DNA from: Escherichia coli
GTDB lineage: Bacteria; Pseudomonadota; Gammaproteobacteria; Enterobacterales; Enterobacteriaceae
Reading direction: 5' to 3' (one strand)
Length of the DNA: 64,000 nucleotides
Assembly (NCBI RefSeq): GCF_044324785.1
Contig: NZ_CP172127.1
The notes under the pieces are model-generated. The model ran no database searches. It was not told the DNA's origin and saw only the letters and a program-made list of their open reading frames with translations. A program made the translations under genes and the position numbers. This document shows positions 47,285 through 64,000 of the stretch, one piece after another. Numbering within the stretch: the stretch's first letter is position 1; each line of letters starts with the position of its first letter.

Positions 47285-47452
47285 GTGAATCATCCGTTGA
47301 TTAATCATATATAAATATTATGTATCAATAACTTACATTGACAAACGACGCTACCATTAATCAAAATGACTCACAAGGTCCGAAAAAAAACGCCGGCAAT
47401 GTGCCGACGTTTTGATAAAGAAAGATTTGGCTATTTATTGCACGTTGTTCAT

Positions 47453-48736
47453 TCAGGCTGCCTGGCTAATCCGCGCCAGCTGCTCGAAATAATCCGGAAA
47501 TGTTTTGGCCGTGCATTTGGGATCAAGAATCGTCACTGGTGTATCTGACAACGCCACCAGCGAGAAACACATCGCTATCCGGTGATCATTGTATGTCGCG
47601 ATCTCGGCAAAGTTCAGCTTTTCCGGTGGAGTGATACGAATGTAATCGTGCCCCTCTTCTACTTCCGCACCAACTTTACGCAGTTCTGTTGCCATCGCAA
47701 ACAGGCGATCGGTTTCTTTAACACGCCAGTTATAGATATTGCGCAGCGTGGTGGTGCCTTTTGCAAATAACGCCGCCGTGGCAATGGTCATCGCCGCATC
47801 GGGAATATGGTTCATATCCATATCAATAGCGTTCAGTTCACCACGCGTGCAGGAAATATAATCATCACCCCAGCAAATGGTCGCGCCCATTTTTTCCAGC
47901 ACATCAGCAAAGCGAATATCACCCTGCATACTGTTGCGTCCAATGCCGGTCACTTTTACAGTGCCACCTTTGATTGCTGCTGCTGCCAGGAAGTAAGAAG
48001 CCGAAGATGCATCGCCTTCGACCAAATAAGTACCCGGAGACTGATAAGACTGCCCGCCTTTTACGACAAATTGTTGATAGTGCTGATTTTCAATTTCAAC
48101 ACCAAACGTCTTCATCAGATTGAGTGTGATGTTGATATAAGGTTTAGAAACCAGATCGCCTTTAATACGAATCACCGTATCTTCCGGTGCAAGAGGCGCA
48201 GTCATTAACAGTGCGGTGAGGAACTGGCTGGAAACGGAGCCATCAACGTCAACGTTGCCGCCAGTAAAGCCGCCCTGTAAACGCAATGGCGGATAATTTT
48301 CTTGTTCCAGGTAAGTGATCTTCGCCCCGCCCAGGCGCAGCGCATCCACCAGATGACCAATCGGGCGCTCTTTCATACGCGGCTCACCAGTCAGCACAAT
48401 ATCATTGCTACCCAGACAAAGAGCTGCCGCCAGCGGGCGCATTGCCGTTCCGGCGTTTCCGAGGAACAACTCCAGGGCACCTTCTGCGTGTAATGGACCG
48501 CCGTTACCGATGATTTCGCAACGCGTACGATCGGCTGAAAGCGTATAGCTTACCCCTAACGCTGCTAATGCATTCAGCATATGGCGCACGTCATCGCTAT
48601 CCAGCAGATTGGTTAATACTGTTTTGCCGTGTGCTAATGCCGCCAGCAATAAAGCGCGGTTAGAAACGCTCTTGGAACCGGGCAGATTAATAGTGCCATC
48701 GACACGAGCGATGGGTTGTAACGTCAGGGATTCCAT
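47453..48736 (-). CDS. aroA: 3-phosphoshikimate 1-carboxyvinyltransferase (EPSP synthase)
   Basis: 427 aa beginning [35 protein letters not shown]. Confidence 0.95.
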
Positions 48737-48806
48737 GAACTCAACTCTCTACAACAGAAATAAAAACCCCACAGGCTGGCTGTGGGGATTAAGCAAAATT
48801 TCGGCA

Positions 48807-49895
48807 TTAACCGTGACGGCGTTCGAACTCAACCATGAAGTCTGTCAGCGCTTTAACGCCTTCCAGCGGCATGGCATTATAAATAGACGCGCGCATTCCG
48901 CCGACCACACGGTGACCTTTCAGTGCATGAAGGCCTGCAGCAAAAGACTCTTCAAGGAACAATTTGTCAAGCGCACTGTCCGCCAACTGGAACGGCACGT
49001 TCATCCGCGAACGGTTAGCTTTCGCCACGTCATTGCGGTAGAAATCGCTGTTATCAATCACCCCATACAGCAGTTCTGCTTTTTGCTGATTGATTTTATC
49101 CATTGCAGCTACACCGCCGTTCGCTTTCAGCCATTTAAAGACCAGACCAGACAGATACCAGGCAAATGTCGGCGGCGTGTTAAACATGGAGTCGTTATCG
49201 TTGAGAATGGAATAATCCAGAATCGACGGACACGCGATATTCGCTTTGCCCAGCAAATCTTCACGAACGATGACGATTGTCAGGCCAGCCGGGCCGATAT
49301 TTTTCTGCGCGCCAGCGTAAATTACACCATAACGGCTGACGTCAATCGGACGGGAAAGAATGGTTGAAGAGAAGTCGGCGGCGACCACCACATCTTTGCC
49401 GAAGTCTGGCGTTTCGTCGATAGCGATACCGTCGATGGTTTCATTCGGGCAGTAATGCATATAAGCAGCATTATCAGAGAGTTGCCATTCACGCATTGGT
49501 TTAACCGCGCGCAGACCATCAACAGTCACTTTGGCGTCAAAGACATTAGGCGTGCAGTATTTTTTCGCTTCTTTAATGGCACTTGCCGCCCAGTAACCGG
49601 CATCAACATAATCTGCAGTGGTTTTATCACCGAGAATATTCAGCGGAACAGCAGCAAACTGACCGCGACCGCCGCCATGGCAGAACAATACTTTGTAGTT
49701 GGAGGGGACATTAAGAAGATCGCGAAAATCCTTCTCGGCTTCCTCTGCAACCTGAATGAACTCTTTGCCACGGTGACTCACTTCCATCACCGACGTACCA
49801 AGACCGTTCCAGTCGCGCAGTTCCTGTTGAGCCTGTTTAAGCACCTCTGCCGGTAGCATTGCCGGACCAGAACTAAAATTGAAGATTTGAGCCAT
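48807..49895 (-). CDS. serC: phosphoserine aminotransferase
   Basis: 362 aa beginning [33 protein letters not shown]. Confidence 0.95.
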
Positions 49896-50093
49896 TTCCC
49901 CTCACCACGTTGCGTTGCTATTAACCCGCGGTCAATCGATTGCGACCACAGGTAATACATTATTCCTGTGGCTATCGGTTTTATCATTCAGTGACACACA
50001 TCGCAATGAGTAAAACCGTTGAGGGCAAAAATGTGGCTTGCATCACACAAAAGAATCTCTCGGATTATTAGCAAAAAGCCGATGTTTTTACTG

Positions 50094-50786
50094 TCAGGTC
50101 ACCCGTTTTGCCCGACTTGCCTTCGTCCATTCTGGATTTGCACAGCGCGGACATAATTGTTTTTCCCCCGCGTTCATATGAATGATTTCACTGCAACGAA
50201 TGCAGGCATAGTCCGCCGACTCGGGTACCACTTTGTAACGCTGAGTACAGTCACTGGGTAAAATAAGTAAGCCCGGTTTCACCTTGTCATCTTCAAAGAA
50301 ATAGACACTGATTTGCCCGTTGGTTTCGAGAATCGCCAGACGTACCTGCCCCAACTGCTCTACACCGCGCAATCGTAGCTCCATAAAGAACTCAAATTCC
50401 GTCATGTTGGAGTTATTGAGTTTTGACCAGGCCAGCTCGCCATCTTCAATAATGACAACCGGCTTACCTTCCAGAAGATCTTCCAGTTTTTCACTGTGCG
50501 CCATCAACCACATTACCAGTCGGTATAACAACGCCAGAGTAATAAAGACGATAAGTACCGGGACCATCGGCACATCATCATAAAACGCCACATCTCCCGC
50601 CGCTGATCCCAGCGTCAGAATGATTAACACTTCAAAAAGCGACATCTGCCGCACACCGCGTCTTCCGGTCATTTTGAGGAACAAAAAAACCAGTACAAAG
50701 GTATACAGACTACGTAGTGCCACTTCGCCAAGGAAATCAAAAGGCACTTTATCAAATGCCATACGGTGGAGATCGAACGCCTTCAT
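50094..50786 (-). CDS. ycaP: DUF421-family inner membrane protein YcaP
   Basis: 230-aa ORF with N-terminal TM segments; divergent to ycaO. Confidence 0.8.
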   Translation of the reverse strand: MKAFDLHRMAFDKVPFDFLGEVALRSLYTFVLVFLFLKMTGRRGVRQMSLFEVLIILTLGSAAGDVAFYDDVPMVPVLIVFITLALLYRLVMWLMAHSEKLEDLLEGKPVVIIEDGELAWSKLNNSNMTEFEFFMELRLRGVEQLGQVRLAILETNGQISVYFFEDDKVKPGLLILPSDCTQRYKVVPESADYACIRCSEIIHMNAGEKQLCPRCANPEWTKASRAKRVT

Positions 50787-56467: not shown

Positions 56468-57208
56468 ATGTCAGTTATTGGTCGCATTCACTCCTTTGAA
56501 TCCTGTGGAACCGTAGACGGCCCGGGTATTCGCTTTATCACCTTTTTCCAGGGCTGCCTGATGCGCTGCCTGTATTGTCATAACCGCGACACCTGGGATA
56601 CGCATGGCGGTAAAGAAGTTACCGTTGAAGATTTAATGAAGGAAGTGGTGACCTATCGCCACTTTATGAACGCTTCCGGCGGCGGCGTTACCGCATCCGG
56701 TGGTGAAGCAATCCTGCAAGCCGAGTTCGTTCGCGACTGGTTCCGCGCCTGCAAAAAAGAAGGCATTCATACCTGTCTGGACACTAACGGTTTTGTTCGT
56801 CGTTACGATCCAGTAATTGATGAACTTCTGGAAGTGACCGACCTGGTAATGCTCGATCTCAAACAGATGAACGACGAAATCCACCAGAATCTGGTAGGCG
56901 TTTCCAACCATCGTACACTCGAGTTTGCTAAATATCTGGCGAACAAAAATGTGAAAGTCTGGATACGTTATGTCGTAGTACCTGGCTGGTCTGACGATGA
57001 CGATTCAGCTCATCGCCTCGGTGAATTTACTCGCGATATGGGTAACGTCGAAAAAATCGAGCTCCTCCCCTACCATGAGTTAGGCAAACATAAGTGGGTG
57101 GCGATGGGCGAAGAGTACAAACTCGACGGTGTGAAACCACCGAAAAAAGAAACCATGGAGCGAGTGAAAGGGATTCTTGAGCAATATGGTCATAAAGTGA
57201 TGTTCTAA
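56468..57208 (+). CDS. pflA: pyruvate formate-lyase activating enzyme (radical SAM)
   Basis: 246 aa from the ATG at 56468 ([23 protein letters not shown]) with the CxxxCxxC radical-SAM cluster motif ([10 protein letters not shown]). Confidence 0.95.
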
Positions 57209-57264
57209 AACATCATGTGCAGGCTGAATTCCGACCTGCCACCCCTTCCTTTAGTAGTAAAAAG

Positions 57265-57300
57265 TAAATCAGCGTTGAGAACATGCTCGACGCTGATTTA
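57265..57300. terminator. hairpin between convergent pflA and the bcsC-like gene
   Basis: Inverted repeat TAAATCAGCG ... CGCTGATTTA around a 16-nt loop; an A-run on the plus-strand 5' side gives a T-run on the minus strand, so it most plausibly terminates the bcsC-like transcript. Confidence 0.4.
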
Positions 57301-57342
57301 CTGGATTTAATTTCCGAGTTTTAACCTTCTGATTCTACCTCA

Positions 57343-60300
57343 TTACCAGTCGGCGTAAGGTATCAGCGGCTGCGGCGGTAAATCCATGTCGCCCTGCCAT
57401 CCGGCGGCGGAATACCGCACGTAGAGCAGGAAATGGCTTGGCGCATAATCTTTCGCCTGCTGGATATCAATCGCCGTGCCGACAAACCAGTTGGACGTGA
57501 CGCGACGCTCAAGTAACGCCCGCGCCGTGTAGCCAAAGCCCTGACTGCTGCCGCCGTCGTTGGTCTGACTGGCGGCATCCTCTTTCCAGTCCGTCGGGAT
57601 CAGGTTCATCAGCGGATAACGCGGCATGGTTTTGGTGCGCGAATGCGACCACGAGCCAGACGCACCCAGCTCCCACGACCAGTTTTCCGTCCGCTCCCGC
57701 CACATCACCGGTATGGCAAACGACAGGTATTCCTGCGGGCTGTAGTAACCGCCCTGACCAAGTGAGTAGCCACTCAGGTCTTTGTCGTAATGCCAGATCA
57801 TATTGTTAAGACCAATGGTCACACGGCGATTATTCTGGTTGATGATCTTATAGTAATAGCCCGTCATCCAGCGCACGCGCCAGTTATCTTCGACATTTTT
57901 ACCGGTTAACTGGTCACCGCTAAGCGATGCCCAGACGCCGTTTGCTTCACCTTTATCGTAGCTCAGGCTTAGCCCCACGCCGTCGGCACGCACGCCGCCC
58001 CATTTTTTCCCGGTATTGCTCGGGGAGTCTTTTTGCCCGCCAAAGGCCAGCAAAGAACTGGAGATGGGCCGACGGTGGGCGTTAACGGTGTAACCCAGCG
58101 GCCCGATATCATCGCTGTAACTGATGCCGCCGACCACATCCACCACGTTGAAGCCCATCGGCGTGGTGCCGATATCCCAGCTCCAGACGTCATTTCGCCA
58201 GCCGACCGCCACGCTGGCACCGGAATCCGACTGGCTGCGGTTGCCGCTACAGTCCTGTAATGTACAGGTGCCCCAGTTGTCATCCCATTTGCCATCGGCA
58301 TTAGTGGAGAAACTGCCGACGTTCATATTGACGAAATCACTGCGAAAGAACATCCGCCCGTCAGAGTACGGCGCATCCACCTGCAACATGGTGGTGTGCG
58401 CTTTCAGATCGGAGTAACCACCGGTGCCGCTCGAACCCCAGTAATCGTGCTCGAGGGTGACGTTAAGATCCTGCTGGCGATAGAGGTCCGCTGCATCGCT
58501 GCGCACGCCGCGTTTCAGCCAGTCATCTTTCTCGTCGTTACGGGTCAGCCGGGTAAAGGTGTCGTTATCCTGCGGACGCGTCGTGGTCACACCGGATGCG
58601 ACCATCGCGTCTTTGTAGGTTTCCAGCGCCTGCGTTGGATCGCCCGCCTGCGCTTCAAACTTCGCACCGTCGCGCAGCACCATCGCGCTTTCCATCGACG
58701 GTGGCTGAGATTTTGCCTGCGGGATCAACTTATTAAACGTCTGCTGCGCCGCTGCGGTATCGCCAAGCTGCGCCTGCGCCAGCGCCACGCGCCGCTGAGT
58801 GTTCAGAGAGGCGTTATCAGTGGCGGGCAGTTTCGCCAGCTGGCTACGTGCCGCCGCTTTGTCACCGGCAGCAATATCCACTTCCGTCAGACCAAGAATG
58901 GCATCGGCGTTAGTTGGCTCCCGCGTCAGGACATTCTGATATGCAGCGCGAGCGGCGGTGTAATCACGTCGTTGTTGCGCCCAGTCAGCCAGCGTGAGGT
59001 CAATACGCGAGGAAGGCGGTTGCTGGCGCAGCATCGCTTCCGCTTCTGCCTCTTTGCCGCTTTCTCGCAGGCGATTAGCGGTTTCCAACACCTGATCGCT
59101 TTGCAGTCGATTAACCAGCTCCTGAATATTGCTGCTCCACTGCGCGCGCGGCAGGCTGTTGATATGCGCCAGCGCCGCTCTGTCCTGGTCATGACCAGAG
59201 AGATACAGCCCGTAAGCGTAAACCTGCTCCGGGTCGTTCGGCTTCTGCTGCGCCAGATTGCGCATTAACGTATCGGCCTGGCTGCGTTGTCCGGCCTGCC
59301 AGAGATCCTGTGAAAGTCGGTAAGTAATCCATACACTGCCGGGGTCCAGCGCCAGTCGCTGGCGCTGAAGTGCTGCTGCCTGCGCCCATTTGCCCTGTTT
59401 TTCCAGCGCTTCGGCCTGCTGTGACAAACGGTCATTTTGCAGGCTGCGTTCGATATCATCAATGCTACGCCGCTGACTGGCAGAGAGCGAGGCGATAAAC
59501 GCTTCAGCCTTTTCTGGCGATTGCTGGCGGTATATATTCGCCAGCCCGCGCACGGCGTTAGTGTTGCCGCTGTCCATACGCAAGGTCTGCTGATAATAAC
59601 GTTCGGCGGCGGGATAATCTTTTCGCGCCATCGCCACATCGCCCAGCCCCAGCACTGCATAGCTGTCGGTGTTATCGACATTACGCGCCTGCTGGAACAG
59701 GCGTTCTGCCCGGTCAGGATTATTGGCTTTCAGCGCAGCATCGCCCTGCTGGATCGCCAGCCAGTAGCGGTTTACTTTCAGGAGACTGTTCCATTTGTCG
59801 TTGTTGCTGCTGTGCGGATCCAGGGCGAGGGCTTTTTCCAGATTCGCCACCGCATTGGCGCGATCGCCTTTCTGAGAATACGCCTGGCCCAGCGCTCCAA
59901 ATATGGCACCAGAGTCAGGATTATCAATATTAAGTATTTTCAACTGACGAATCGCTTCGTTGCGACGGGAGGCAATTTGCGTCATTGCCCCCCAGTATTC
60001 CAGCGCCATTTCGATATCTGGCGGTGCACCGTTAAATAGCTTGTCGTAACTGTCGATAGCCTCTTTATGTCGCCCGGAGATAGCTTGTAAGCGTGCCATT
60101 TGCAGTGCCTGACGCCCCTCAGGCGAAGAAAGTCGCATGGCCGTGCGCGATGCTTTATATATTTTTGAATCAGGAGCGAGCAGGGAAAGTCTGGCAAGTT
60201 GTTTTTGCGCGCCTTCAATATCTCCCTTACGCAGCAGATAGCGAAAACGCGCCGCAACGACATCTGGATTATCAGGTTCCGCCAATTCAAGACGATAAAG

Positions 60301-60450
60301 CGACTGTTCGACCAGATCTTCACGATGAATGTCTTCGCCTAACCGAATCTGCGCCATTAACAGCTTGTGTGCAGTTGGTGTGGCTTTCGCCATCGACATT
60401 ACCGCCAAACCAAGGGATATTGTGAGTAAATTTAGGGTGAATTTGTACAT
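57343..60450 (-). CDS. bcsC: BcsC-like outer membrane polysaccharide export protein (TPR repeats plus C-terminal beta-barrel), 1035 aa
   Basis: Signal peptide; long TPR-rich N-terminal region (repeated A/L/Q/R-rich about 34-aa units); aromatic-rich C-terminal beta-barrel ending PLIPYADW; directly downstream of a BcsB-like gene. Call based on architecture and recalled similarity, not a database search. Confidence 0.75.
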   Translation of the reverse strand: MYKFTLNLLTISLGLAVMSMAKATPTAHKLLMAQIRLGEDIHREDLVEQSLYRLELAEPDNPDVVAARFRYLLRKGDIEGAQKQLARLSLLAPDSKIYKASRTAMRLSSPEGRQALQMARLQAISGRHKEAIDSYDKLFNGAPPDIEMALEYWGAMTQIASRRNEAIRQLKILNIDNPDSGAIFGALGQAYSQKGDRANAVANLEKALALDPHSSNNDKWNSLLKVNRYWLAIQQGDAALKANNPDRAERLFQQARNVDNTDSYAVLGLGDVAMARKDYPAAERYYQQTLRMDSGNTNAVRGLANIYRQQSPEKAEAFIASLSASQRRSIDDIERSLQNDRLSQQAEALEKQGKWAQAAALQRQRLALDPGSVWITYRLSQDLWQAGQRSQADTLMRNLAQQKPNDPEQVYAYGLYLSGHDQDRAALAHINSLPRAQWSSNIQELVNRLQSDQVLETANRLRESGKEAEAEAMLRQQPPSSRIDLTLADWAQQRRDYTAARAAYQNVLTREPTNADAILGLTEVDIAAGDKAAARSQLAKLPATDNASLNTQRRVALAQAQLGDTAAAQQTFNKLIPQAKSQPPSMESAMVLRDGAKFEAQAGDPTQALETYKDAMVASGVTTTRPQDNDTFTRLTRNDEKDDWLKRGVRSDAADLYRQQDLNVTLEHDYWGSSGTGGYSDLKAHTTMLQVDAPYSDGRMFFRSDFVNMNVGSFSTNADGKWDDNWGTCTLQDCSGNRSQSDSGASVAVGWRNDVWSWDIGTTPMGFNVVDVVGGISYSDDIGPLGYTVNAHRRPISSSLLAFGGQKDSPSNTGKKWGGVRADGVGLSLSYDKGEANGVWASLSGDQLTGKNVEDNWRVRWMTGYYYKIINQNNRRVTIGLNNMIWHYDKDLSGYSLGQGGYYSPQEYLSFAIPVMWRERTENWSWELGASGSWSHSRTKTMPRYPLMNLIPTDWKEDAASQTNDGGSSQGFGYTARALLERRVTSNWFVGTAIDIQQAKDYAPSHFLLYVRYSAAGWQGDMDLPPQPLIPYADW

Positions 60451-60562
60451 GCCTGCCTCAATCAGGTGTTAACTCACTTTTTATTAAAAACAGAACGGGC
60501 GCAGCTCCCTGCCTGTATAAAGTCAGGACAGAATGGAGCCGCAAAATAGAAATGATGATGAA

Positions 60563-61166
60563 TTACTGTTGATGAGGGTTCAGACGACGGCGACTAATGT
60601 TACGTAACAGACTCCATACTACCCACGCCAATAGCACCACACTGAGAGTTGCCAGCACTGCCAGTAGAATGGGATGTCTGGCTAACACATATTGCACTCG
60701 TTCAATCCAGGGGAGATGCCCAACGTAATAAGTATCTCCAACTCGTAAACTATTGATGCCAGATTCACGAATAACCGCGACTGAACCAAAAATATTGCCG
60801 CGTTTTGTACTATTAATTAACGCATTGTTGAGTAGCGTATCTCCGCGTGATCCCTCGGACATTAAAGCAATTACGCTGCGTTGGGTATGATATGGAGACT
60901 GAAAACCAACTATCGCCGCCATTGGCAATGGAGAATTTATAGTTGTTTGTATTTCAGGTTTTTGATCGTCGTTATCTGTCATAATTTTGGCGTAATCAGA
61001 GTGTCGTATTGGGCTTTTTACCCAACTTGTTGTTGCCTCAATGAGCAGATTAATTTGCTGATTGTCTGCAAATTCTTGCGGAAGTCTTCCTATTAACAGG
61101 ATATCTGAATCCTTGCCCTGGACAGAACCTATATCATCAGTAATTGTCAGATTAATTGCCGGAGAT
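60563..61166 (-). pseudogene. bcsB: 3' portion of BcsB-like gene (cellulose synthase periplasmic subunit) separated from its 5' portion by IS2
   Basis: Reading frame is open from the IS2 boundary (61166) through the ORF-track ORF 60563..60982 and ends in a C-terminal TM anchor (HPILLAVLATLSVVLLAWVVWSLL); frame is continuous with the 5' part once IS2 plus one TSD copy are removed. Confidence 0.7.
61162..61166. repeat. IS2 target-site duplication GAGAT (copy 1)
   Basis: GAGAT immediately flanks both IS2 termini. Confidence 0.9.
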
Positions 61167-61177
61167 TGGATTTGCCC

Positions 61178-62083
61178 CTATATTTCCAGACACCTGTTAT
61201 CACTTAACCCATTACTGGCCTGCTGCCGCAGATATTCCCGTGGCGAGCGATAACCCAGTGCACTATGCGGATGCCATTCGTTATAATGCTCGAACGCCTC
61301 TGCAAGGTTCTTTGCTGCCGTTAACCCGTCTGGTTTAGGCATGATACTGATGTAGTCACGCTTTATCGTTTTCACGAAGCTCTCTGCTATGCCGTTACTC
61401 TCCGGACTCCGCACCGCCGTGTTCTTCGGTTCAAGCCCCAACATCCGGGCAAACTGCCGTGTTTCATTAGCCCGGTAGCATGAACCATTATCCGTCAGCC
61501 ACTCTACTGGAGACGCCGGAAGCTCGTTGCCGAAGCGGCGTTCCACCGCTCCCAGCATTACGTCCTGTACTGTTTCACTGTCGAAGCCGCCCGTAGTGAC
61601 TGCCCAGTGCAGTGCCTCACGGTCACAGCAGTCCAGCGCGAACGTGACTCGCAGTTTTTCTCCGTTATCACAGCGGAACTCGAACCCGTCAGAGCACCAT
61701 CGTTGATTGCTTTCTTTCACGGCCACTTTGCCAGTATGTGCCCGTTTCGATGGCGGTACAGCGGTTTTTCGCTCAAGCAACAGCGCATTCTGGCGCATGA
61801 TCCGGTAAACACGTTTGGCATTGATCGCAGGCATACCATCAAGTTCGGCCTGTCTGCGAAGCAGCGCCCATACCCGACGATAACCATACGTGGGCAGCTC
61901 TCCGATAACATGGTGTATACGGAGAAGCACATCCGTATCATCTGAGTGACGGCTGCGGCGACCATCTTTCCAGTCATCGGTTCGTCTGAGAATTACGTGC
62001 AACTGCGCACGCGACACCCGGAGACAACGGCTGACTAAGCTTACTCCCCATCCCCGGGCAATAAGGGCGCGTGCGCTATCCAC
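61178..62083 (-). CDS. insD: IS2 transposase OrfB (InsD), DDE integrase domain
   Basis: 301-aa ORF beginning [29 protein letters not shown], with rve-type catalytic region; overlaps insC in the -1 frame as expected for IS3-family frameshifting. Confidence 0.9.
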
Positions 62084-62406
62084 TTTTTTGCACGCCCGTA
62101 TTCAACGGCTTCTTTAAGGAGTTCATTTTCCATCGTTTTTTTGCCGAGCAGGCGCTGGAGTTCTTTAATCTGCTTCATGGCAGCAGCAAGTTCAGAGGCA
62201 GGAACGACCTGCTCTCCTGCGGCCACAGCAGTAAGACTTCCCTCCTGGTATTGCTTGCGCCAGAGAAATAACTGGCTGGCTGCCACACCGTGTTGCCGGG
62301 CAACAAGGGAGACCGTCATTCCCGGTTCAAAACTCTGCTGAACAATAGCGATCTTTTCCTGTGTAGTACGCCGTCTGCGTTTCTCCGGTCCTAAGACATC
62401 AATCAT
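62041..62406 (-). CDS. insC: IS2 OrfA (InsC), helix-turn-helix regulator
   Basis: 121 aa from the ATG at 62406 ([41 protein letters not shown]...); ORF-track start over-extended. Confidence 0.9.
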
Positions 62407-62497
62407 CTGCTCTCCAATGACTAGTCTAAAAACTAGTATTAAGACTATCACTTATTTAAGTGATATTGGTTGTCTGGAGATTCAGGGGGCCAGTCTA

Positions 62498-62502
62498 GAG
62501 AT
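62498..62502. repeat. IS2 target-site duplication GAGAT (copy 2)
   Basis: GAGAT immediately flanks both IS2 termini. Confidence 0.9.
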
Positions 62503-64000
62503 CCAGTTTGAGCACCAATCAGTCCAAGGGTATTTAATAATGTTTCAACTTGCGTTGTGCCAGGATTTTCAGGCATAACCACAACCGTTTCTGATAGATC
62601 GGCCATGCGGCTAAATGGAAAGCCTGAGCTGGCAAAAGCGCGTAAATCTGGCATTGCGATAAAGTGATGGTACTTTGAAAAATCGATAGTGGAATCATCT
62701 GCAATAACCGCATGATTTTTTAGCGACCGGGAAATAATACAGCTATCGGCATCAGAGCGCGGCATTGTATTAACGTACTCAAAATTAAATCGCAATTGAT
62801 TAAGCGCCCCTAACGTCAGCGCAGGAATGTTAATTTCATTATTACCATCCAACAATTCTTGCAATAACGGTAAACGTAACAATAACCTATCAGTAGCAGA
62901 TTGCGGACTCAGCCGGAAAGATTCAAGGTACTGGTTATTAAGGCTGACATCCATGCGTGAACCACCTATCGTTGGCGTGGTATAACGATAGTTAATCTTC
63001 ATCTCACCCCCACGATTACGCAATAGAAAGAGATCAGGTGGCAAATTAAATGAAACATTAATTGCCGCAGACTCCAGGGCACTTGCCTGTAACTGCCCTT
63101 CATAATTTTTAAGCTCTGCGAAAGTTACAGGACGATCAGTGCGTATCCAGTTTGGCGCATCATAAGGTTTACGCGGCAGTAACGGCTTCACGTCATTTAC
63201 GACCACGCTATCGCCGCGAAATAATATATTTCCCTGTGCAAGGCCTTTTGCCGCCTGTAATAAATCTTTATCATCGCGGCCCAAAAGTACCAGCAATTTG
63301 ACAAAGGGATTTTGTGGATGACTGATCATTTTAATAACAGGCGCATTCACCAACGGATGCTCGCGCAGAAAGTCTGGGCGTCTATTGTTCGTGGCAAAGA
63401 CTACTGCATTACTTTCCGGTAACTGGTTATAGAAAACCGGAAATCGGTGACCACGCCAGCCAGATTGCGAACCAAACCACGAAGCGACAATAGCTGATAC
63501 CTGCTGCAAACCAGTCCCAGGAGTACCGGCAAAAACCATCGGCAATGTATTAGGGCGGTTATCTCGCGGATCAAAGAACGGTACAGGAAGATATGAAAGA
63601 TCATTTTTCAAATTGAGTCTCTGAACTACCAGTTCAAGTTCACTGGTACGTCCAATATCAAGCCACAAATTGCCGCTGGTCGGGTTTTCGCAGGCGCTCT
63701 GGTAGTGACTAATTAATTCTAGGCGCAAGCGATTAAAATCCGAAAAATACAATGGGTTAAGAGTTATTTCCGCCAGCGTTTTCTTCCCCAGTTGTTCTTT
63801 GGTAATCGGCAATACCTCCATCAACTCGTCATTAAGATAGACCTTAAGCTGTGACTGGACCGGGATCAGCGACGGTGATGGAGTGTATTCAAGTTTTAGT
63901 TTCGCTTCTGACACTATTTCATCGCTACGCATACCAAACTCAATTTGCCCCTGTGGGTTAACTCCATTCAGGACTATGTTTCCTGGCGCTGGTGCGATTT
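62498..64000 (-). pseudogene. bcsB: 5' portion of BcsB-like gene interrupted by IS2 (runs off the window end)
   Basis: Open minus-strand frame from the window edge to the IS2 boundary; ORF-track protein 62448..63932 (494 aa) is BcsB-like, with its last 16 codons read from IS2 sequence before a stop. Confidence 0.7.

Follow-up and report, generated by a model that had tools for sequence, protein, structure and literature searches.

An accessory cellulose-synthase island of Escherichia coli with a probable bcsZ scar, a chimeric bcsC and an IS2 insertion in bcsB

The bcsB- and bcsC-like genes that adjoin one another without an intervening bcsZ in a 64-kb stretch of E. coli DNA (the window) belong to an accessory cellulose-synthase island, which has been acquired horizontally by a minority of E. 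coli and by E. ruysiae and is carried alongside the core bcsRQABZC-bcsEFG locus. The absence of bcsZ is the normal state of this island and not damage to the core cellulose genes, and with the recognition of a second synthase island a possible mis-annotation of the locus is settled. It is highly probable that the locus as a whole is explained by such an island in combination with an old deletion of bcsZ that left a scar, a bcsC gene of chimeric descent and a bcsB gene split by IS2. The accessory bcsABC cluster is already known, and RefSeq already names the genes bcsB and bcsC; what is added here are modest details, namely the scar of bcsZ, the knockout by IS2 and a 3' part of bcsC that evolves in concert with the core gene.

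Results

The island spans 12.7 kb between ycaM and pflA, in place of ycaN-ycaK, and homology to K-12 stops at the ends of pflA and ycaM. It is composed of a yliE-like EAL gene, a yliF-like GGDEF gene, bcsA, bcsB and bcsC, arranged in N3, E7-1N7 and 06-00048 as pflA / bcsC-bcsB-bcsA-GGDEF-EAL / ycaM; K-12 has pflA ycaK ycaN ycaM at the same site, and its bcs locus (bcsC-bcsZ-bcsB-bcsA-bcsQ, beside pdeK and dctA) is found 2.7 Mb away. The full order bcsA-bcsB-bcsC without bcsZ also occurs in E69 and in E. ruysiae. The annotation of the N3 locus, which is 99.4% identical, was transferred to the window by blastn, and the 6.7-kb region concerned is 99.9% identical to E. coli N3 apart from a 1.33-kb insertion. 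The bcsA, GGDEF and EAL genes lie outside the window and were deduced from N3, whose sequence over the junction is 100% identical. The coordinates of the features are collected in Table 1.

Table 1. Features at and around the bcsB-bcsC junction in the window.
Feature	Coordinates	Strand	Remarks
pflA	56468..57208	+	core-genome gene flanking the island, convergent with bcsC; K-12 homology ends at the pflA stop
17-bp-stem hairpin	57263..57302		between the stop codons of pflA and bcsC, in an island-specific gap of 134 bp
bcsC 3' tract	57343..59896	-	about 851 codons, distal TPRs and beta-barrel; core-type, 2.55 kb
bcsC 5' tract	59897..60450	-	554 nt, signal peptide and TPR#1-4; island-specific
bcsB-bcsC spacer	60451..60562	-	112 nt, from the bcsB stop to the bcsC start
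Putative decayed relic of the last ~27 bcsZ codons	60451..60529	-	reads VLTLYRQGAAPVLFLIKSELTPD*GR; includes GAGG, the ribosome-binding site of bcsC
Predicted RNA hairpin in the spacer	60500..60543	-	fold z-score -1.76, weakly supported
bcsB 3' fragment	60563..61166	-	about 195 codons at the 3' end, with the C-terminal membrane anchor; blastn to intact N3 bcsB
IS2, 1,331 bp	61167..62497	-	5-bp duplication GAGAT at 61162-61166 and 62498-62502
bcsB 5' fragment	62498..64000	-	approximately codons 67-571; open, runs off the window end

The three synthase proteins of the island, with BcsA and BcsB taken from N3, all reach their NCBIfam cut-offs. Island BcsA is 52% identical to K-12 BcsA (52.2% over 703 aligned residues; 706 versus 872 aa), or about 42% for the N3 protein when the identity is expressed over the full length of BcsA1, and the 706 residues of N3 BcsA align to positions 148-836 of the 872-position profile. 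Island BcsB is 66% identical to K-12 BcsB. The neighbouring genes had the Pfam architectures CHASE9-EAL and GAPES2-GGDEF in nine of nine loci, and matched the NCBIfam GGDEF and EAL models too.

The island junction was present in nine of 5,426 complete E. coli genomes, and bcsB abutted bcsC in every one of them. A tBLASTN search with BcsZ for a copy elsewhere in the genome had been proposed in an earlier note on this DNA. All nine complete island genomes have a core bcsZ elsewhere; in N3 the core locus is intact (bcsGFE/bcsRQABZC) and situated 2.8 Mb from the island. The exact 1,035-aa BcsC recurred in 173 blocks of the assembly collection, with the same layout in all nine places shown. Also in E69, in nine further assemblies and in E. 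ruysiae, where the island occupies the same site and 110 of 112 spacer nucleotides are identical, bcsZ is absent at the island position. A lineage normally without bcsZ at this position, which the same note had said would speak against its claim, is thus what is seen in every known carrier. In a scan of 100,044 species genomes (one genome per species; 80 loci kept), island-type BcsB was found only in E. coli E69, there also without bcsZ, and every other BcsB among the 80 loci was at most 65% identical to the island protein. A bcsZ gene lay between bcsB and bcsC in 76 of these 80 loci, the order bcsB-bcsZ-bcsC spanning Pseudomonas to Escherichia, and the scan yielded no BcsB relative of the island type that still had bcsZ.

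From this DNA alone, the gene pair could be taken for a canonical E. coli bcsQABZC operon from which bcsZ has recently been cleanly removed. The 3' two-thirds of bcsC are 96% identical to K-12 bcsC, so that the gene looks canonical when judged from its sequence, and clean losses of bcsZ do occur, as in Enterobacter sp. ENT03 where exactly 1,070 bp are missing. A recent deletion is nevertheless very improbable, being refuted by the location of the locus beside pflA and not beside pdeK and dctA, by a BcsB only 66% identical to that of K-12, and by the complete and separate canonical operon with bcsZ in N3, 2.8 Mb from a junction that is identical to that of the window. Furthermore, identity to K-12 over the first 554 nt of bcsC is only about 70%, and the spacer remnant is no near-copy of bcsZ but shares 73% identity with it. 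The earlier note had taken the canonical bcsA-bcsB-bcsZ-bcsC operon as its reference.

At the junction itself, the bcsB-like ORF stops with TAA at 60565-60563 on the minus strand, and the bcsC-like ORF (57343-60450, minus strand, 1,035 aa) begins with an ATG at 60450 that is followed by a signal peptide, MYKFTLNLLTISLGLAVMSMAKA. The earlier note's coordinates, with 112 nt and no bcsZ between the two genes, were therefore confirmed, and no GH8 ORF was found: tblastn with E. coli K-12 BcsZ as the query returned no GH8 gene, either from the 64-kb window (best E 0.63) or from the 35-kb N3 locus that contains the whole island. Exactly the same 112-nt spacer was seen in 12 independent loci as well as in L100 and L101, and 110 of its 112 nucleotides were identical in three further loci (L097-L099). 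In a second island lineage (E7-type), which is about 16% diverged, the spacer measures 104 nt. No match was obtained with Rfam at E <= 1 on 60300-60750, and a promoter and terminator scan gave no promoter- or terminator-like sites on the coding strand of the spacer. A counterpart of the hairpin predicted in the spacer is better supported in the diverged E7-type spacer, where the fold z-score is -3.1. A block of 34 nt at 60466-60499 (TTTTTAATAAAAAGTGAGTTAACACCTGATTGAG) is identical in the two island lineages, which otherwise are about 15% apart; it is the best-conserved part of the spacer and adjoins the bcsC ribosome-binding site on the upstream side. Its identity may reflect chance, recent exchange or a constraint on bcsC expression.

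Most of the spacer appears to consist of a decayed bcsZ 3' end. The translation SVLTLYRQGAAPVLFLIKSELTPD*GR, in which a stop codon interrupts the relic in frame, was set against the strongly conserved C-terminus of BcsZ, a motif conserved in 62 distinct BcsZ C-terminal sequences (76 loci plus K-12). By tblastn, BcsZ residues 335-363 aligned to 60529-60449 in one frame, with the alignment ending at the bcsC start as in canonical operons. In six-frame translations of the spacer, a BcsZ profile HMM built from the 76 loci plus K-12 placed the right frame and positions at the top with E-values of 0.08-0.18; the target is too short for HMMER, and a permutation test was therefore used instead. None of 2,000 dinucleotide shuffles and none of 1,991 random genomic 112-mers from the window attained the best local score of 46, while the first 80 nt of the spacer alone (p ~0.02) and the E7-type spacer alone (p ~0.03) gave marginal values. 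Compared as nucleotides, the final 85 aligned columns shared 73% identity with the K-12 bcsZ 3' end, a divergence equal to that of the adjacent bcsC 5' tract. The E7-type spacer retains GQG...F...ELTPD*, and what the two island lineages have kept of the motif is complementary, with VLTL in one lineage and GQG in the second.

Such a relic in the spacer argues that bcsZ was lost through an old deletion that was neither recent nor clean. Judged by the alignment, the ancestor of the island would have had the order bcsB-bcsZ-bcsC, and the deletion would have taken bcsZ codons ~1-334 and left about 80 nt of the 3' end; the deletion is deduced, as no type-3 relative with bcsZ was found. The loss seems to predate the split of the two island lineages. 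Part of the similarity lies over the translation-initiation region of bcsC, and could have been conserved for its own sake. In every canonical operon, however, bcsC is preceded by coding sequence of bcsZ, so that even homology of the ribosome-binding region implies descent from the 3' end of bcsZ. Of the two origins that the earlier note had offered, a clean deletion of bcsZ is thus borne out as a deletion and not as a clean or recent one, given the remnant of some 27 codons, and a distinct module that never had bcsZ is borne out as a distinct accessory bcsABC module and not in its history.

A module that never possessed bcsZ, with a spacer that resembles bcsZ by chance or by constraint on the bcsC ribosome-binding site, is in our judgement unlikely. 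The E-values from the profile HMM are weak, the best-conserved block of 34 nt is found just upstream of the bcsC start, and minimal bcsABC clusters have been reported as such with no mention of a relic (bioRxiv 10.1101/2025.05.09.653004), all of which would agree with such a history. Against it stand the alignment score that neither shuffled nor genomic sequences attained, a match that is co-linear, in a single frame and ends where canonical operons would have it end, the complementary VLTL and GQG parts in the two lineages, the bcsZ coding sequence that precedes bcsC in every canonical operon, and the wide occurrence of the bcsB-bcsZ-bcsC order from Pseudomonas to Escherichia.

The two tracts of bcsC differ greatly in their relation to the core gene. 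The 554 nt at the 5' end are 64-70% identical to every canonical bcsC tested, with K-12 at about 70%, while the 3' tract is 96% identical to K-12 bcsC and closer still to the resident core gene: 96.9% between the island and the core copy of N3, and 98.2% between those of E69, whose island tract is 92.4% identical to K-12 bcsC. The 3' tract of E7-type islands is 93.4% identical to E. albertii bcsC versus 88% to K-12 bcsC. From about nucleotide 555 of the island gene (window ~59896) to the stop codon the resident core gene is followed almost SNP for SNP, and homology with the core locus extends up to the bcsC stop codon and no further. Informative sites in the 3' tract favoured a grouping by genome over one by paralogue (118 vs 3, 164 vs 6 and 188 vs 2), whereas those in the 5' tract grouped by paralogue type (135 vs 0). 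That the 3' tract tracks the resident core bcsC argues for gene conversion. The pattern in the aligned sequences indicates that bcsC is a chimera, which has kept its own 5' end and has had the rest overwritten from the resident core gene. Conversion appears to be confined to bcsC, as no window of 50 residues in BcsB or BcsA was more than 88% identical to the core proteins.

The island BcsC also lacks a stretch of 366 nt (122 codons) of core bcsC between 59923 and 59922, corresponding to K-12 residues 177-298 and roughly to TPR#5-7. The protein matched the NCBIfam BcsC model NF008520 with 1,899.7 bits (cut-off 858) in two stretches with 122 profile positions skipped, residues 178-1035 falling on profile positions 300-1157. 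This gap is located 26 nt upstream of the start of core-like sequence, and may act as a barrier at which conversion tracts end.

A 2.55-kb near-repeat of the core gene at which short-read contigs break could, in principle, deceive an assembler, and a collapse or misjoining of two bcsC copies would produce both a false chimera and a false bcsB-bcsC junction. E. ruysiae short-read contigs do break 180-310 nt past the bcsB-bcsC junction, as is expected if the bcsC 3' tract is a repeat. But several complete chromosomes and many independent assemblies share this junction, spacer and 1,035-aa BcsC (the exact protein in 173 blocks), and the island and core copies are 2-3% apart and hence distinct sequences, which makes an assembly artefact exceedingly improbable.

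In the window, bcsB is split after approximately codon 571 by a copy of IS2, which separates the C-terminal membrane anchor from the rest of the protein. The insertion lies 600 bp upstream of the junction and was overlooked in the earlier note, as was the chimeric nature of bcsC. Alignment with N3 by blastn is interrupted at 61166/62498, where its two parts overlap by 5 bp, and the ORFs of the element exceed the NCBIfam cut-offs for TnpB (NF006918, 706 bits) and TnpA (NF006928, 276 bits). Intact BcsB of N3 attains 1,168 bits where the cut-off is 922 (NF008325, a 766-position model), and the bcsB of the window is not full-length. Two missense changes distinguish the 5' fragment from N3. The list of ORFs had suggested a nonsense mutation at the 5' end of bcsB, which was rejected since the ORF simply runs off the window. 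IS2 was absent from bcsB in the other island loci examined. BcsB is required for the activity of BcsA (bioRxiv 10.1101/2025.05.09.653004), and with bcsB split by IS2 the accessory module in the source strain is therefore most likely inactive. The expression of bcsC is probably also lowered by polarity of IS2.

Other lesions were observed elsewhere, and the island is decaying in several strains through different ones. In one locus (L088, 3984-5323) the GGDEF gene of the island is split into two ORFs of 117 and 356 aa, and in another (L095, 1631-3978) the EAL gene is split into ORFs of 91 and 682 aa. In three E7-type carriers (SCU-172, OZ547117.1 and MSB1_4I) the bcsB match ends about 70 nt short in comparison with other E7-type genomes, which may represent a truncation or an insertion at the 5' end of bcsB.

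On the pflA side, the 134-bp gap between pflA and bcsC has no match in the K-12 bcs locus or in the pflA-ycaK spacer of K-12. The 17-bp-stem hairpin in this gap was the only terminator-like site in the scan and likely serves as a terminator for the convergent pflA and bcsC. Further afield, an IS4 element between ycaL and aroA in N3 (L001, 3735-5081) is absent from the window (47394-47406), and mismatches to N3 cluster at 48000-50500 and at 56500. The IS4 difference and the clustered mismatches together indicate a source strain close to N3 and not identical with it.

Discussion

The genes of the island have been under purifying selection since the loss of bcsZ. In a comparison of the two island lineages, dN/dS was 0.06-0.14 and dS 0.5-0.76 over all six genes or gene parts, and low dN/dS values after this loss indicate that the module without bcsZ has long been kept functional. 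In published experiments, cellulose export fell sharply without BcsZ, only its hydrolytic activity mattered, an unrelated cellulase could replace it, and no BcsZ-BcsC complex was detected (PMC11379886). In the island, c-di-GMP from the adjacent cyclase would activate the PilZ-bearing BcsA, BcsB and BcsC would form the export path of a BcsA-BcsB-BcsC secretion line with cellulose as the putative product. The scar still supplies the ribosome-binding site of bcsC. Cellulase activity might be supplied in trans by the core BcsZ, which is soluble and periplasmic, or might not be needed; supply in trans fits the results cited above (PMC11379886). The long persistence of such modules (dS ~0.6) without a cellulase of their own agrees with the recent finding that nothing more than free hydrolytic action in the periplasm is required of BcsZ. 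The scar indicates that minimal bcsABC modules arose from full bcsB-bcsZ-bcsC operons.

The distribution of conversion along bcsC may also be informative about BcsC itself. TPR#1-4 comprise residues 21-179, and TPR#1 docks on the terminal BcsB subunit (PMC11379886). At the published BcsB-BcsC interface the island differs on both sides, with F163Y, I164F and V209L in BcsB and Q30L and I57A/V in BcsC. The 5' end would then resist conversion because TPR#1-4 docks on the island's own BcsB. We lean towards a modular BcsC in which only the BcsB-docking end is the island's own, and in which the rest of the TPR solenoid and the barrel have repeatedly been overwritten, with E. coli-type sequence in N3, E69-type in E69 and E. 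albertii-type in E7. The accessory synthase would share the cellulase and the export parts with the core system, and only the contact of BcsB with TPR#1 of BcsC would have to match. If so, the chimeric bcsC amounts to a natural domain-swap, where resistance to homogenisation in TPR#1-4 alone points to a BcsB-BcsC contact that must stay matched.

A bcsB-bcsC pair without bcsZ between the two genes is seen also outside the island. Enterobacter sp. ENT03 (L057, 9741-9785; NZ_JAHUXA010000026.1) resembles the island in that bcsC directly follows bcsB with no GH8 gene, but differs from it in having lost precisely 1,070 bp from a canonical operon, with a spacer of 21 nt that holds no relic; here bcsZ was lost naturally and independently, in a single genome and not across a lineage. 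In a locus of Legionella wadsworthii (L085) there was no BcsZ match between bcsB and a bcsC-like ORF of 1,040 aa.

The closest described relatives are the accessory bcsABC clusters of types 2 and 3, which are confined to Escherichia, have a short BcsA and are accompanied by YliE/YliF homologues; these were described in a 2025 preprint by Hosseinpourlamardi et al. of the Römling laboratory, in which BcsB and BcsC cluster concordantly with BcsA (bioRxiv 10.1101/2025.05.09.653004). By location and percent identity, the island is probably the chromosomal type 3 (BcsA3) of the preprint. It shares with type 3 the order bcsA-bcsB-bcsC without bcsZ, bcsQ, bcsR, bcsE, bcsF or bcsG, a BcsA without the N-terminal extension of about 150 residues, a chromosomal site away from the core locus, adjoining YliE-like EAL and YliF-like GGDEF genes and a restriction to the genus Escherichia. 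For the BcsA of type 3 an identity of about 41% to BcsA1 is given, and N3 BcsA agrees with this at about 42%. The type 2 and type 3 reference proteins could not be matched to island strains or accessions in the text or supplements of the preprint, and the BcsA3 reference HDP8224287.1 was found neither there beside any island strain nor among the 15 listed members of the 414-member cluster. The copy in the window departs from type 3 as described by its IS2 in bcsB, its chimeric bcsC and its bcsZ scar; neither a bcsC mosaic nor a bcsZ remnant is reported in the preprint.

With the core type IIa locus (bcsRQABZC-bcsEFG) the island has homologous BcsA, BcsB and BcsC in common, as well as the same architecture of signal peptide, TPRs and barrel and the 3'-terminal 2.55 kb of bcsC, with 96-98% identity to the resident core gene. 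The core bcsZ and bcsC overlap by 19 nt, whereas the island has only the scar. Unlike the core locus, the island is devoid of bcsQ, R, E, F and G, is not located beside pdeK/dctA and has no divergent bcsEFG; its BcsA and BcsB are 52% and 66% identical to the core proteins, and its BcsC is without 122 residues of the TPR region.

A parallel to the scar is provided by the plasmid-borne type 2 clusters, bcsAB(C), of P1-like phage-plasmids such as pLH13-b-B (NZ_CP100527.1). The short BcsA of this plasmid is 72% identical to island BcsA, while BcsB2 is only 61% identical to island BcsB. As in the island, there is no working bcsZ, and a 3' stub of bcsZ adjoins a core-type bcsC. In contrast to the island, the bcsC of the plasmid is of core type in its entirety (99% amino acid identity to K-12), and the stub of 140 nt lies inside a tract that is 97% identical to the K-12 locus, indicating a recent capture. 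A group II intron and an IS200-family element lie between bcsB2 and the stub, giving the arrangement bcsA2-bcsB2, intron, IS200-family element, bcsZ stub and bcsC (L005, 11119-22041), in which an accessory synthase has been joined to a captured core export gene.
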